Shown piece by piece: positions 9,198 through 22,377 of a DNA stretch of 64,000 bases. Every line of letters begins with the position of its first letter. Positions within the stretch are counted from its first letter, which is position 1. The notes beneath the pieces were generated by a model, which was not told the origin of the DNA, made no database searches, and was given only the letters and a program-made list of their open reading frames with translations. The position numbers were made by a program, and so were the translations under genes. This DNA is from an uncultured Pseudomonadota bacterium (GTDB lineage: Bacteria; Oederibacteriota; Muellerivitia; Muellerivitales; Muellerivitaceae), in contig CAVYRH010000005.1 in NCBI GenBank assembly GCA_963770835.1, forward strand, positions 224,001 to 288,000, given 5' to 3'.

Positions 9198-9274
9198 GCG
9201 CCTGTAGCTCAGTTGGATAGAGCAACTGCCTTCTAAGCAGTAGGTCGGGAGTTCGAATCTCCCCGGGCGCACCA
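9198..9274 (+). tRNA. tRNA-Arg(TCT); 3' half supplied by integrated element 1 (attL)
   Basis: Acceptor GCGCCTG/CGGGCGC, anticodon arm ACTGC-CTTCTAA-GCAGT, T arm GGGAG-TTCGAAT-CTCCC, CCA. Confidence 0.95.
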
Positions 9275-9289
9275 TATTTTTCAACGGTT

Positions 9290-10405
9290 CTACAACTTCG
9301 CTTCTTGGCTGGTGCCCGCCCGTGTCATATCCGTGTCAAACTGCCGCTCAACCTGCTTCAGCGCGTTCACCCGGTCTTTCCGGTCAATCCGGTTATACCG
9401 TTTGAACATCGCGTAGGTCTTATGGCCCGATATGGACATGATGACCGAATCGCTTACCCCCGCTTTTCTAAGATTCGTAACCGCGCAATGCCTGAGATCG
9501 TGGAACTTGAAATTTCCGATCCCTACCATGCGGCACGCCCTCAAAAAAGCTGTCTTGACGCTCCGGATGCGCTTTCCCCTATGGGTGAAGATATAAGGGC
9601 TTCCCAGGGTCTTAGGCGTCCGTTTCAAGAGGTCTAACAAGCCCTCCGTCAACGGGACTTCCCGTTTCTCCTGGGTCTTGGTGTCCGCGGCTTCCAGGTT
9701 GACCACCTTGTTTTGGAAGTCCACCTGATCCCAACGCAACCCCAAAATTTCCCCTTTCCTCATGCCGGTCCAATAAGCCAATTGGACTATGACACTTAGG
9801 CGGGGGGCGCAATGGGGCAAAAGCGCCTCGTATTCCTCCGGCGTCAAGGTGCGGTCGCGGGATTCTTCCCGGAAAGGCCTTACCCTCTGGATCGGGTTTT
9901 TCTCAACCAAGTCGTTGAGGACCGCCCGATTCACGATTGACTTGAGAGTCCCAAGGTCCCGGTTGAGGGTGCAGTTAGTCAGCACCTTCCCGCTACGGCC
10001 TTGATTCGTGGATTGGTTTCCAGCCTTCCTCCGTTGGGTTAAAAAGCCCTCAACTATGTCCGGCGTTAAGCTCCTCAAAGGCCTGCTACCAAAATAAGCC
10101 TTGAGCCGCTCGACTATCTGAGAATCGTTCTTGTGGCTTTTCCTTCTTGCTTCGGAATAGGCCAGGAACGAATCCGCCGCCTCGTTGAAGGTGACCTCCG
10201 GTTTTTCCACAGCCAGAAACTTTCCTGCCACAATTTCTTGCGTGTGTTGGGCTAGTATCTTCTTGGCCTGGGTTACCGGTATTTCTCCCAATCGGACCCG
10301 CTTGCGTTTCCTCAATCCTCCTTCCTGGATGAAATAATCCAAAAAATACCCTTTTTCATCCTTGCGGAGAAATTGGGGCAATCCATGAACATTAGGTCTA
10401 CTCAT
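9290..10405 (-). CDS. Tyrosine recombinase / site-specific integrase
   Basis: Catalytic R (TGMRKGE), K (KTQ), HxxR (FHDLRH), H (SGHKT), Y (KRYN); basic N-terminal arm-binding-like domain; AGGAGG RBS. Confidence 0.96.
   Translation of the reverse strand: MSRPNVHGLPQFLRKDEKGYFLDYFIQEGGLRKRKRVRLGEIPVTQAKKILAQHTQEIVAGKFLAVEKPEVTFNEAADSFLAYSEARRKSHKNDSQIVERLKAYFGSRPLRSLTPDIVEGFLTQRRKAGNQSTNQGRSGKVLTNCTLNRDLGTLKSIVNRAVLNDLVEKNPIQRVRPFREESRDRTLTPEEYEALLPHCAPRLSVIVQLAYWTGMRKGEILGLRWDQVDFQNKVVNLEAADTKTQEKREVPLTEGLLDLLKRTPKTLGSPYIFTHRGKRIRSVKTAFLRACRMVGIGNFKFHDLRHCAVTNLRKAGVSDSVIMSISGHKTYAMFKRYNRIDRKDRVNALKQVERQFDTDMTRAGTSQEAKL
9322..9342 (+). repeat. Putative arm-type integrase sites GTGTCATATMCGTGTCAAACT
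   Basis: Same 21-mer (tandem GTGTCA, 11 bp apart) at 9322 and 13512 in element 1 and at 17415 and 22136 in element 2. Confidence 0.75.
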
Positions 10406-10983
10406 TTGTCCCTCCTAATGTCCCCAGCAATTTGAATACTACCAGGGACTAAGATTTTTTCAAAAGAACTTTCAACGAGAGTTACGAAAAACTCGAAAAG
10501 TTCAATACCGTACTCGAAGCATTGAAAGCGTGGTTTTTTGCTGTTTGTTTTGATTTTTGTTTGGATGAAAGAAGTAGTCGTAAATATTTCCGCAATATGG
10601 GCGGCATACCGAACCAAGAGGGCAGACCCCACTACCGATTTCCTGGATAAGAACTTGATCCAGGGGGAGTGGGGTCTGCCGTCGCAGGTGAGCAATCCGC
10701 CGCCCATATTGCGGTTTTTTCTTGGAAAAGGATGTGAGTCTGAGTCAAGTTCCGCTTTAACCTGTTTTAAGTTCCGTTTAAAGTCGGTTGAGGTTCTCTT
10801 TGGAGAAGTTTGAAAAATGGATTGGCTGTGGTCGAAGCCTTGGGTGATTTTGCCTTCGGCCTTTTTCCTATTTGAACGTTCTAGCAGGGAAGGGTCACAA
10901 ATTGGCAAGGCGAGATCTTCGGCCCGTCTATCGGCCTTTAAATGCAAAAGCTCAAATTCAAGGTTCTCGATCATGACTAACAT
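10402..10983 (-). CDS. Possible leader ORF coupled to the integrase start (coding status uncertain)
   Basis: 193 aa ORF whose stop overlaps the int ATG; the homologous region in element 2 is split into two ORFs (18805-19071, 18483-18818) and shows no clear third-position bias. Confidence 0.25.
   Translation of the reverse strand: MLVMIENLEFELLHLKADRRAEDLALPICDPSLLERSNRKKAEGKITQGFDHSQSIFQTSPKRTSTDFKRNLKQVKAELDSDSHPFPRKNRNMGGGLLTCDGRPHSPWIKFLSRKSVVGSALLVRYAAHIAEIFTTTSFIQTKIKTNSKKPRFQCFEYGIELFEFFVTLVESSFEKILVPGSIQIAGDIRRDK
10590..10714 (+). ncRNA. Candidate structured RNA (hairpin A), element 1
   Basis: Nested 16-bp, 13-bp and 7-bp inverted repeats; compensatory changes versus the copy at 18671-18795. 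Confidence 0.6.
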
Positions 10984-11050
10984 CCCGTAATGAGATCGAC
11001 TTCTTGAATTATCTTGAGAGCCCGTGATTATCTTTTCAATGTATTTTATT

Positions 11051-20284: not shown

Positions 20285-20323
20285 TTTAATTCCCGTTTAG
20301 TCCGCTTGTAATAGGAGTAAATA

Positions 20324-22120
20324 TTGGTTCGGAAATTTCTCCTAATTCCTTTATTTCTTTTTTGGGGGATTCCTTTTCAGGCCGAATCTCAGTCTGGCGA
20401 AGTTGTCAAACCGACTTTAGACCCATTGATATACATAAAATCAAAAGAAGGTGTTTTGCACCAGGATGTCAGGAACATTCGGGATATTGCCTTGGACTTC
20501 GCCGGCAATATTTTCCTCTTGGATTCCTTTCACCTGGGTGTTCAAAAGTTTACCAATGATGGCCATTTTTTAACGAATTGGGGTGCGACGACCGATAAAT
20601 CCAAACGTATAGGTGATAGCCTAGCCATCGACCCAAAAGGAAACCTCTATCTTTTAACGATGAAAGGTGTTGTTTTTAAATACACGAATAAAGGTGTTCC
20701 TCTTCAACAATATGCCCCAAAGGAAATAGAGCCGGGACAGTATGAGGGGACTACTTCCATCCGTTTTTCGAACGGACACTTTTTTATTTTGGACAGGTAT
20801 CATTGTAAGGTCCAGATTTTTGACCAGGATTTCCATTATCTATCCTCCTTTGAACTTCCATCCGAACTCCGTGATTCAGGCCGCATGAAATACTGCCTTT
20901 GCCGCAATATGGCCGTAGACAGCTTGGAGAATATCTACCTGGACAGCAAAGGGGAGATCGATAAGTACGATAAGAACGGGAAACTCCTAAAACGGGTTGG
21001 TTATCCAGGCAACGGGCATGGGGAATTCATGGGGATTAATGGGATAGCTGTTGGTTCGATGGATCGTATTTATGTTATCGACCGGGGCCGAATCCAGGTT
21101 TTTGACGATGATTTAAATTTTTTGATGCAATTCAAACCCCGTGAAATGGTCCAACACCTAGCCATTGATGGCCATGGCTACATTTACACTGCCGGTTTGG
21201 AAGAGAGTGTGGAGAAGTTCGCTAAGTATGACGGCCCCTTCATTCTGAAAAATGCAGAGGAATTTACAAAGTATTCCGATGACCACAATAGCCCGGATTA
21301 TCCACTCCTCGAAGTCGGTCCGGACGGAAAAATCCCGCCGACCTTTTGGAGATACTCTCCTAGGATAGAAAAAGTCACCAGCGAACTTAAAACAGTTAAT
21401 TCAAAAGATGATTTGATCGTATTTGGGAAAAAATATTCCAAATTCAGTGGCCAGGATAGCGACGAAGATACTTCTCCGGACAAGGGTGAATTCTTAAAAA
21501 AGCTCAAAGAGATGGGGTTCATCCCGGAAGCGGGAACCGAGTCCGGTTTCTTCCAGTTCAAAGAAATCCAAAGCCCCCATCTTTACTACTGGTGTTTCAA
21601 CGATTTGGTTTATGGGATTTTCCCCGAAGACCCACATCAAGCGGTGGAAATAACCCGGTTTCCCGGTAAATTTACCGGAGTTTGGCGTATCAACGAAGTT
21701 ATTTCTGCGGAAAAAATGGGGCCAGGCTGTTACCGATTTTCAAAGAGTGAATCAGGGAAATACGAGCCGAGCTCCACCCTAACGATTTCGGACGTGGATT
21801 TGAACCGGAAGAAAATGGATGCTTATTCATCCGAAGGTTATCTGAAAGACCTGGATCATAACGGCAAGAATGAGTGGATTTATTACTTGAGCACCGGGGA
21901 CAAGTTTGAAATTTTCCTTTGGCCCTATGTCTTTTCCTGGGACGGACAATCTTGGGCAAATGTCAGCGCCACTTACCCCATCTTTTATAAGACTGAGGCC
22001 TTTGAAAACCTGAAATCTGTTGAAAAATGTTGCGTCGGCCAATATTACACTGACCCGAAATTGGTTGCCTTGTTGGAACAGGCCGCCTTGGCGGGCGGCC
22101 CCAGCGCGTTTAGTAAATAA
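20324..22120 (+). CDS. Secreted NHL-repeat (beta-propeller) protein
   Basis: Signal peptide, NHL repeats (DIALDFAGNIFLLD, GEFMGINGIAV..DRIYVID), C-terminal DLDHNGKNE motif. Confidence 0.8.
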   Translation: MVRKFLLIPLFLFWGIPFQAESQSGEVVKPTLDPLIYIKSKEGVLHQDVRNIRDIALDFAGNIFLLDSFHLGVQKFTNDGHFLTNWGATTDKSKRIGDSLAIDPKGNLYLLTMKGVVFKYTNKGVPLQQYAPKEIEPGQYEGTTSIRFSNGHFFILDRYHCKVQIFDQDFHYLSSFELPSELRDSGRMKYCLCRNMAVDSLENIYLDSKGEIDKYDKNGKLLKRVGYPGNGHGEFMGINGIAVGSMDRIYVIDRGRIQVFDDDLNFLMQFKPREMVQHLAIDGHGYIYTAGLEESVEKFAKYDGPFILKNAEEFTKYSDDHNSPDYPLLEVGPDGKIPPTFWRYSPRIEKVTSELKTVNSKDDLIVFGKKYSKFSGQDSDEDTSPDKGEFLKKLKEMGFIPEAGTESGFFQFKEIQSPHLYYWCFNDLVYGIFPEDPHQAVEITRFPGKFTGVWRINEVISAEKMGPGCYRFSKSESGKYEPSSTLTISDVDLNRKKMDAYSSEGYLKDLDHNGKNEWIYYLSTGDKFEIFLWPYVFSWDGQSWANVSATYPIFYKTEAFENLKSVEKCCVGQYYTDPKLVALLEQAALAGGPSAFSK

Positions 22121-22332
22121 ACTGGATGTGCAGCCGTGTCATATACGTGTCAAACTCAACCATGCTTTACCGTGCTTGACCATCCCTTACTGCCATTGAC
22201 CGTCACTTGAAAAAAAGGCCCTTGCCCCCGCAGGTCGTAAAACCGTTGAGAACAAAGGCCTTTAAAAATGTGCTGGGGACTGATAAATTTTAATAAACAA
22301 TCTAAAAGAGCTTCCGAATATGGTCCGTGTGA

Positions 22333-22377
22333 TTTACACGCAGGGGGTCACAGGTTCGAATCCTGTTTCGCCCACCA
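22333..22377 (+). repeat. attR of element 2: tRNA-Val 3' half
   Basis: TTTACACGCAGGGGGTCACAGGTTCGAATCCTGTTTCGCCCACCA. Confidence 0.95.

Follow-up and report, generated by a model that had tools for sequence, protein, structure and literature searches.

Introduction

Integrative elements that carry an origin of transfer (oriT) as their only transfer function, the iOriTs, are described as a frequent class in the preprint of Ares-Arroyo et al. (bioRxiv 10.64898/2026.01.13.699239). Mobilisable genomic islands (MGIs) such as Vibrio MGIVflInd1, which is mobilised by SXT/R391 elements, are reported to be relaxase-less, with a tyrosine integrase of their own and a helper-like oriT (PMC5704250). In the MOB_C systems, the prototype TraX is described as a winged helix-turn-helix (HTH) domain with a restriction-nuclease fold, whose bind site consists of direct repeats 70–120 bp from nic (PMC12857230). 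Relaxases of family PF13814 found with VirD4 have been classed as MobC, in compact coupling protein–relaxase–excisionase–integrase arrays in integrative and mobilisable elements (IMEs) of streptococci (PMC5357655). Here we describe two islands, E1 and E2, in a 64,000-nucleotide stretch of the genome of an uncultured FCPU426 bacterium (contig CAVYRH010000005.1, positions 224,001 to 288,000; hereafter the window). Our reading, to which we give a probability of roughly 60%, is that both are tRNA islands with an integrase and without relaxase or excisionase, which move as oriT-only hitchhikers on MOB_C-type elements of candidate division FCPU426.

In the features that can be tested, the islands appear to work like iOriTs, with the oriT itself as a predicted part. 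Each is an att-delimited island with one tyrosine integrase and no relaxase or mating-pair formation (MPF) genes. Each has a candidate oriT in common with co-resident helpers and toxin–antitoxin (TA)-like cargo next to it, and is just above the 4-kb size floor that the preprint reports for iOriTs. What is new, and sets them apart from iOriTs, is the lineage (FCPU426), the loss of the excisionase (which the preprint counts in the integration module), the presence of two inverted origin subtypes, and an open frame without protein selection across one origin. Their backbone is also homologous to that of the helpers beyond oriT, in integrase and att arm. The original prediction that the two islands represent an undescribed class was overstated, since oriT-only integrative hitchers (iOriTs and MGIs) had been described. 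Among the papers listed, keyword searches of the open-access literature returned no description of an FCPU426 mobile element or of an open frame across an oriT.

Whereas MGIs are reported as 18–33 kb long, with their own recombination directionality factor (RDF) and MOB_H helpers (PMC5704250), the islands are 4.5–5 kb, have no RDF and would use MOB_C-like helpers. Because they have no RDF, they are not strict MGIs. Nor are they cis-mobilisable elements, in which integration genes are lost and att sites kept, because their integrases are intact, full-length and under purifying selection. The helpers resemble MOB_C systems (pAD1 TraX, CloDF13 MobC, streptococcal IME_Class_8) in a predicted winged HTH plus nuclease fold encoded after a VirD4 gene, in the same compact gene order (PMC5357655), and in a repeat cluster tens of bases from an inverted repeat, comparable by description to the TraX bind site (PMC12857230). 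They differ in that the helper protein misses the PF13814 cut-off and Class_8 IMEs are reported to use serine integrases; E1 and E2 are without these genes.

More than one origin per element has precedents. Staphylococcal plasmids reportedly carry oriT mimics of several subtypes (PMC8136818). In E1 and E2, too, different subtypes could widen the helper range. The known dual-oriT elements, as reported for pAD1, R6K and ICEclc (PMC6414798, PMC5587640), are self-transmissible, and the mimics lie on plasmids, whereas here two inverted subtypes lie 600 bp apart on a minimal integrative element.

Results

Two tRNA islands without relaxase or excisionase genes

The layout proposed for the two islands was confirmed feature by feature. 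Both E1 and E2 consist of a tRNA gene (called with ARAGORN), a 15-bp gap, a convergent tyrosine integrase, about 1.3 kb (E1) or 1.2 kb (E2) without a Pfam-positive gene (hereafter the block), a TA-like pair, a gene for a TPR protein (E1) or an NHL/beta-propeller protein (E2), the conserved right end and a tRNA 3' half (Table 1). In both, att identity begins where it had been placed, at the first base of the anticodon loop (9230/13698 and 17323/22333). This is the common 'A' subsite, given for 2083 of 3919 islands in the Islander report (PMC4383910). Integration is real, because relatives show empty sites: at L021, in another genome of the host's own genus, the Val site is unoccupied, and tRNA-Arg is followed by tRNA-His within 204–404 bp, as in an empty site, in 7 of the 26 tRNA-Arg loci found for the bacterial family.

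The attR half of E1 is identical to the tRNA-Arg 3' half of L177, L182, L183, L187, L190 and L196. The 3' half of the restored gene has 11 mismatches in 45 nt to this attR copy, and occurs in only one of the 26 family loci (2 of which are incomplete), E1's own. As the displaced half is native and the half in the restored gene is foreign, E1 came from another host.

The islands had been said to have no xis, relaxase, Rep or capsid gene, which profile and Pfam searches bore out. When E1 and E2 were translated in all six frames, a hidden Markov model of the family relaxase had no match (controls scored E 1e-119 to 1e-139), and neither had one of the family xis (controls E 1e-49). There was no HTH Pfam match in the block frames tested, and the short frames of the block other than the leader described below had no family match. 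The islands' own genome (G000) has 5 relaxase, 3 xis and 2 VirB4 matches, together with VirD4-like genes and Rho; its MPF matches are VirB4 on contigs C2 and C12 and VirB6 on C2.

An attP-junction pattern had no match in metagenomes and genomes; the pattern was strict and circles are rare, so that this result has no weight as evidence. Contigs of run X1 cover 10596–11573 in two overlapping pieces and show no attP joint among the joints listed. They hold no host genes from between the islands, and lack of cover was not used as evidence. No RNA data set was listed among the matching sequencing runs.

The block combines parts of larger relatives

Of the 39 loci from a search for integrase relatives, 36 were family members, of several types. 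Type I (L002 type) has a ribbon-helix-helix gene, a VirD4-like coupling protein, a relaxase-like gene of ~300 aa, a hairpin (hairpin A), xis and int; its xis encodes 84 aa, is HTH_17/MerR-like and is coupled to int. Type II (L001 type) starts with a related hairpin (hairpin B), followed by a relaxase-like gene in the opposite orientation, phased repeats, xis and int. Members resembling integrative and conjugative elements (ICE-like) have coupling protein and relaxase, cargo, hairpin B and ArdC, then VirB6, VirB4, xis and int. In the E1/E2 block, hairpin B with its upstream boxes is combined with the repeat region of type II, with hairpin A and with the final codons of xis. As judged from sequence, therefore, the block is a mosaic of cis-acting parts from larger MOB_C-type mobilisable and conjugative relatives. 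The same tRNA sites hold a graded series, from ICE-like elements through IMEs with coupling protein and elements with relaxase only to gene-less ones. At the Val site used by E2, L156 shows the arrangement of E2 but has kept its relaxase.

The closest integrase relatives belong to FCPU426, and among the genomes searched the block was restricted to the window's own family and order. Between E1 and E2, identity was 80.9% for the integrase and 80.4% for the right end, compared to 91.5% for the block at 10910–11470, 95.1% for its core (11150–11410) and only 69.9% for 10406–10909. The block is thus more conserved than the integrases, as had been noted by eye. Part of this is recent common ancestry of E1 and E2, because the block is only 67–81% identical to members in other genomes. 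Conservation of the block beyond the two copies was found: a relaxase-less twin-hairpin block is colinear in L204 (81% over 1056 bp) and L060 (67% over 1036 bp).

In a tree of 36 integrases, E1 fell among the Arg-site elements and E2 among the Val-site elements (100/100 in each case), and members without xis were scattered. Since the integrases track the tRNA target and the xis-less members are scattered, the block is a module exchanged between integrase lineages, which explains part of the gap between 91.5% and 80.9%. The xis-less module is present in 13 copies from 10 genomes of 6 genera (absence of xis was tested by profile for 12). In metagenomes, int lies directly downstream without xis in 18 of the 47 distinct type-A contexts, some of which duplicate genome loci. 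Integrase dN/dS was 0.19 among the xis-less members and 0.23 in the second comparison. Hence the question of whether the islands are deletion remnants of larger elements has a divided answer. They are derived from larger elements, and the stripped module is old and widespread; because it recurs in 6 genera, the islands are not a recent remnant.

A hairpin lies downstream of the relaxase-like gene

Hairpins A and B are subtypes of one covarying family, and in the islands they are inverted with respect to each other, about 600 bp apart. In 44 hairpin sequences, 96.9% of cells were paired (41–50% in slid controls) with 120 two-sided changes, which stand for perhaps a dozen events, many from the A/B split. 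The outer helix showed no one-sided change. A census of 111 clusters, using a pattern with fixed invariant positions and wobble allowed at variable positions, gave 1776 stem cells, of which 1746 were Watson–Crick, 1 was G–T and 29 were other. As the stems are almost without G–T pairs, the hairpin suits DNA better than RNA. Rfam covariance models found no member in the blocks, with only tRNA-related or chance matches up to E 5.

The hairpin model (R1) matched 25 of 99 genomes: the islands' own, 23 of 30 of the family, the single one of the order and 0 of 67 others. The relaxase profile matched the own genome, 21 of the 30, the one of the order and, weakly, two others. The hairpin pattern that was also run on IMG/VR was found at 63 loci in GTDB genomes; the two of these outside the lineage (L105, L139) were rejected, being unsupported by the hairpin model.

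We compared the positions of 88 hairpin places (best strand, matches listed, with 25 weaker ones left out) and 76 relaxase places (fragments merged; weak matches of another family and two short fragments dropped). All counts that follow are among the hairpin matches listed. The hairpin was 67–295 bp downstream on the same strand in 39 of the 76 relaxase places, and 4.6–46 kb downstream on the same strand in 14. It was upstream and opposite in one and beyond 50 kb in two. Thus, 53 of the 54 relaxases that have a hairpin no more than 50 kb away are followed by it on their own strand. In ICE-like members, the relaxase lies on one side of hairpin B, and ArdC and VirB6/VirB4 lie on the other. The iOriT preprint describes MOB_C machineries as holding oriT between MPF and relaxase (bioRxiv 10.64898/2026.01.13.699239), and hairpin B of the ICE-like members occupies that interval. 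The hairpin is a candidate oriT of these elements and most likely serves as such.

For the relaxase-like protein itself, Pfam gave no match. One of the four proteins tested matched MobC_subf NF041423 weakly (E 5e-4, far below the cut-off), and the relaxase profile had no match among PDB sequences. Its Atlas neighbours were Replic_Relax at 0.95 in 23 of 30 matches, and the neighbour clusters carry PF13814 in 17–54% of members. In the structure model (pLDDT 69), residues 1–88 were MarR-like (Z 10.4, root-mean-square deviation (rmsd) 2.7, 77 aligned), and residues 94–267 resembled SdaI (Z 8.4, rmsd 4.2, 131 aligned) and N.BspD6I (Z 8.3, rmsd 3.5, 125 aligned). A PDG..ExE motif is invariant. The predicted fold is that of a winged HTH followed by a PD-(D/E)xK restriction nuclease, and so MOB_C-like. 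In L002-type and ICE-like elements its gene directly follows the VirD4-like gene.

An open frame crosses hairpin A

The block had been described as without a convincing gene. It holds no Pfam-positive gene, but it is not wholly non-coding, as open frames cross it. In E1 a leader frame runs across hairpin A to the integrase, and its end is homologous to the 3' end of the xis gene of relatives. In E2 the leader is split by a frameshift, and the second of the two frames crosses hairpin A and overlaps the integrase ATG. All ten alignable xis-less members besides E2 have a frame that begins at a conserved ATG, runs over hairpin A and ends on the integrase start; in type I elements the equivalent frame runs from the end of the relaxase to the start of xis.

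When type-A contexts were clustered at 93%, a 314-nt stretch that includes the hairpin could be read without a stop in a sense frame in 50 of the 52 clusters, compared to 1.2 predicted from shuffles and 7 of 52 on the antisense strand. One of the two exceptions is in an element with frameshifted genes (L095). In contrast, none of 59 clusters of type-B hairpins, which do not precede xis or int, had a stop-free sense frame.

The leader gave no sign of selection at the protein level. Its divergence was even over codon positions (34.3/33.7/34.0%). Outside the hairpin its dN/dS was 0.88 (12 pairs) and 0.96 (16 pairs), compared to 0.19 and 0.23 for integrases. Its length varied from 94 to 278 codons, and the 5' arm of the hairpin was read in different frames. 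The E1 product had no family match, and the leader protein was unrecognised by Atlas. A cryptic Xis or Rep was ruled out as the leader product, as there was no profile or family match and dN/dS was near 0.9. Together with the short frames, this agrees with the expectation that the block encodes no recognisable Xis or Rep.

The leader is likely selected for being translated and not for its product. The pattern suggests a ribosome bridge across 250–600 nt of structured and otherwise untranslated sequence, coupled to the next gene; we favour a bridge because the leader ends at the start of that gene.

Two further observations concern the leader region. An 11-bp stretch at the leader start in E2 (19058–19068) is the reverse complement of E1 10970–10980, a micro-inversion with an ATG in both. 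An extended -10 promoter-like site lies in the retained xis tail (10436–10463, minus strand). It may be a separate integrase promoter, which we take to be comparable to lambda pI.

att arms and small repeats

The right end of about 190 bp is conserved, as had been noted. It is an ordinary att arm, and the same arm type is found at the far end of relaxase-bearing relatives. Across the entire window, a tandem hexamer repeat is found at just four places, each close to a different att end (9322, 13512, 17415 and 22136), and in the right arms it is followed by 10-bp-phased repeats. It is likely a candidate integrase arm site. The phased-repeat region of the block is likely a putative excisionase-binding, autoregulated promoter, the excisionase role being proposed because the repeats are also present in the att arm. 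Both roles follow the general organisation of lambda-type att sites. The boxes and palindrome upstream of hairpin B are candidate relaxase-binding sites. A separate 10-bp motif lies just upstream of the ribosome-binding site of the integrase, with an inverted copy in the right att arm (10420–10429 and 13647–13656; 18501–18510 and 22271–22280). These are the only four copies in the window and are possibly a binding site.

Table 1. Positions of features of E1 and E2 in the window.
Feature	Island	Position	Strand	Remarks
tRNA-Arg(TCT), attL	E1	9198..9274	+	3' half element-supplied, foreign to this bacterial family
Tyrosine integrase, 371 aa	E1	9290..10405	-	Arg-site clade; PF00589 E 6e-31; tree 100/100 with L001, L005
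Arm-type tandem repeat	E1	9322..9338	+	two hexamers 11 bp apart, in 3' end of integrase gene
Leader frame, 193 codons	E1	10402..10983	-	across hairpin A; stop overlaps integrase ATG
Hairpin subtype A	E1	10597..10710	-	candidate oriT of VirD4+relaxase IMEs
Five repeats, exact 10-bp spacing, and promoter-like site	E1	11027..11110	-	repeat type also in right att arm
Two 22-bp-spaced boxes and perfect 19-bp palindrome	E1	11226..11279	+	upstream of hairpin B
Hairpin subtype B	E1	11300..11412	+	candidate oriT of ICE-like elements and of those with relaxase only; opposite orientation to A
DUF433 + DUF5615 (PIN-like), TA-like pair	E1	11711..12297	+	cargo
TPR protein	E1	12315..13454	+	cargo; probable signal peptide (judged by eye)
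Right att arm	E1	13512..13697	+	arm repeat at 13512; four 10-bp-phased repeats 13543-13579
attR	E1	13698..13742	+	displaced native tRNA-Arg 3' half
tRNA-Val(TAC), attL	E2	17291..17367	+	
Tyrosine integrase, 367 aa	E2	17383..18486	-	Val-site clade; PF00589 E 1e-32
Leader, frameshift-split	E2	18483..19071	-	overlapping frames 18805-19071 and 18483-18818
Hairpin subtype A	E2	18678..18792	-	
Phased repeats, boxes, palindrome	E2	19161..19367	+	
Hairpin subtype B	E2	19388..19500	+	
DUF4258 + YgiT-type zinc finger, TA-like pair	E2	19722..20284	+	cargo
NHL/beta-propeller protein	E2	20324..22120	+	cargo; probable signal peptide (judged by eye)
Right att arm, then attR	E2	22136-22332, 22333-22377	+	attR is tRNA-Val 3' half

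Further features of the relatives

A type I element in the islands' own genome (L087, G000:C1) is 89.7% identical over 8.7 kb to L007 in another FCPU426 genome, with an identical integrase, a sign of recent transfer. The leader frame of L087 is broken. ICE-like members have a TPR-GGDEF gene after a gene of ~195 aa, just downstream of VirB4 (L091:16644-19063, L088:8582-10620, L084:4481-6612), a possible link of c-di-GMP to conjugation. They also have about 1.5 kb of gene-poor, apparently conserved DNA between hairpin B and the ArdC operon (L090:11161-12727, L067:7970-9366), a candidate single-strand promoter region.

A xis–int element at tRNA-Asp (L083:6524-8290, G000:C10) has two copies of hairpin B in the same direction around a transposase gene and no relaxase match. 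L085 (13653-14945 and 15460-15863; G000:C19) has a reverse transcriptase gene of a group II intron, together with two copies of the att arm in inverted orientation, close to a relaxase gene that is truncated at its 3' end and has no hairpin. The integrases of L217, L224, L243, L246, L249, L007 and L025 have the same direction as the downstream tRNA, the opposite geometry to E1 and E2.

Discussion

The helper-mobilised life style put forward for E1 and E2 is likely, given a hairpin linked to a relaxase and helper genes elsewhere in the genome. Several observations weigh against it. The relaxase-like proteins have no Pfam match (PF13814 was missed at E 0.05), and fold Z-scores of 8–10 are moderate. 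The hairpin is downstream of the relaxase and not in the usual upstream place, which is where oriT is generally sought, as the iOriT method assumes in its preprint (bioRxiv 10.64898/2026.01.13.699239); an oriT could instead lie in the region of phased repeats on the upstream side of the relaxase. The compensatory changes in the hairpin come down to few events. Among the hairpin matches listed, 20 of the 76 relaxase places have no hairpin on their contig. One of these counts in favour: the divergent relaxase on C12, beside VirB4 and VirD4, which was outside the training set, is followed at about 80 bp by a perfect 33-bp inverted repeat that the hairpin model found without having been trained on it. 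Two nearly complete genomes (G001, 98%, and G019, 97%) have xis-less islands and no relaxase match, and the integrase of L033 is internally deleted. Finally, leader dS is lower than integrase dS, so that constraint at the DNA level could mask weak protein selection.

Could the islands be immobile or decaying remnants of larger IMEs, whose cis parts linger and which are alike by recent recombination? The missing xis and relaxase, the relaxase-bearing L156 as a parent at the same Val site, the deleted integrase of L033, and integrases that follow the tRNA target while the block is shuffled would all fit. However, the integrases of xis-less members are under purifying selection (dN/dS 0.19), the twin-hairpin block has stayed colinear in L204 and L060, and the xis-less module has 13 copies over 6 genera, scattered across the integrase tree. 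In addition, the leader is still open and E1 carried in a foreign tRNA half. We thus regard decay as improbable. Much the same holds for the hairpin as an RNA element (in attenuation, processing or stability) or a single-strand origin or promoter, with a leader that regulates its folding and the phased repeats as the true oriT. Its strict sense orientation to the relaxase, its conserved asymmetric bulges, its good folding as RNA (z -3.7 to -8.9), the frame kept open across subtype A, and the usual place of oriTs upstream of relaxases speak for such a role. Yet G–U pairs are almost absent, no Rfam model matches, there is no U-tract after the stem of hairpin B, and the sole terminator-like call on hairpin A spans only part of one arm. 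Moreover, in ICE-like elements 5–46 kb separate the hairpin from the relaxase and its neighbour is ArdC, no open frame crosses subtype B, and the recurrence of the phased repeats in the att arm suggests that they are an excisionase site. Taken together, this makes an RNA element or single-strand function unlikely.

The relaxase-like protein might also be a replication initiator with the hairpin as its double-strand origin, so that E1 and E2 would be replicated in trans and not transferred. The family name Replic_Relax spans replication and relaxation, and in L001-type elements no coupling protein accompanies the gene. On the other hand, it comes directly after the VirD4-like gene in L002-type and ICE-like elements, and PF13814 relaxases with VirD4 are classed as MobC in the IME report (PMC5357655); we consider replication a distinctly poor candidate. 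Least credible is a phage satellite packaged by a helper phage, with the block as packaging or replication signal. Small size, a tRNA target and defence-like cargo do resemble satellites in general, and the original prediction had called the islands satellite-like. Nevertheless, all hairpin contexts found were conjugation-related, there is no primase, Rep or capsid gene, and all long open reading frames were assigned otherwise. Searches in phage and virome data gave this idea no support: the block had no match in plasmid and phage records and the hairpin pattern had none in IMG/VR, collections that may lack FCPU426 phages.

If E1 and E2 are oriT-only hitchhikers, a resident relative would provide an HTH excisionase in trans, and this would act on the att arm that the elements have in common. 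The helper relaxase would nick hairpin A or B, and the two subtypes would admit two helper groups. The excised circle would leave through the VirD4/VirB4 channel of the helper, and the island's own integrase would insert it at the tRNA. The open frame would carry ribosomes over the hairpin region, couple translation to the integrase and avoid Rho polarity. A stronger version of this proposal is that minimal hitchers are self-sustaining, with a borrowed relaxase and excisionase and origins for two helpers, and that a frame of 100–270 codons is, family-wide, purely a ribosome bridge over an oriT hairpin. We hold that version only tentatively, and would sooner expect some part of it to fail.

With these islands, oriT-only hitchhiking would reach beyond a few clinical species into an uncultured lineage. 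A relaxase class that has received little study also gains a candidate oriT family with sharp limits. Annotation pipelines would label the leader as either a hypothetical protein or non-coding, and neither label would be correct. The open frame offers a clean, testable case of selection on translation itself. If the bridge is true, it would couple xis/int expression to translation through the origin, and may be sensitive to relaxosome binding or to the state of the hairpin.

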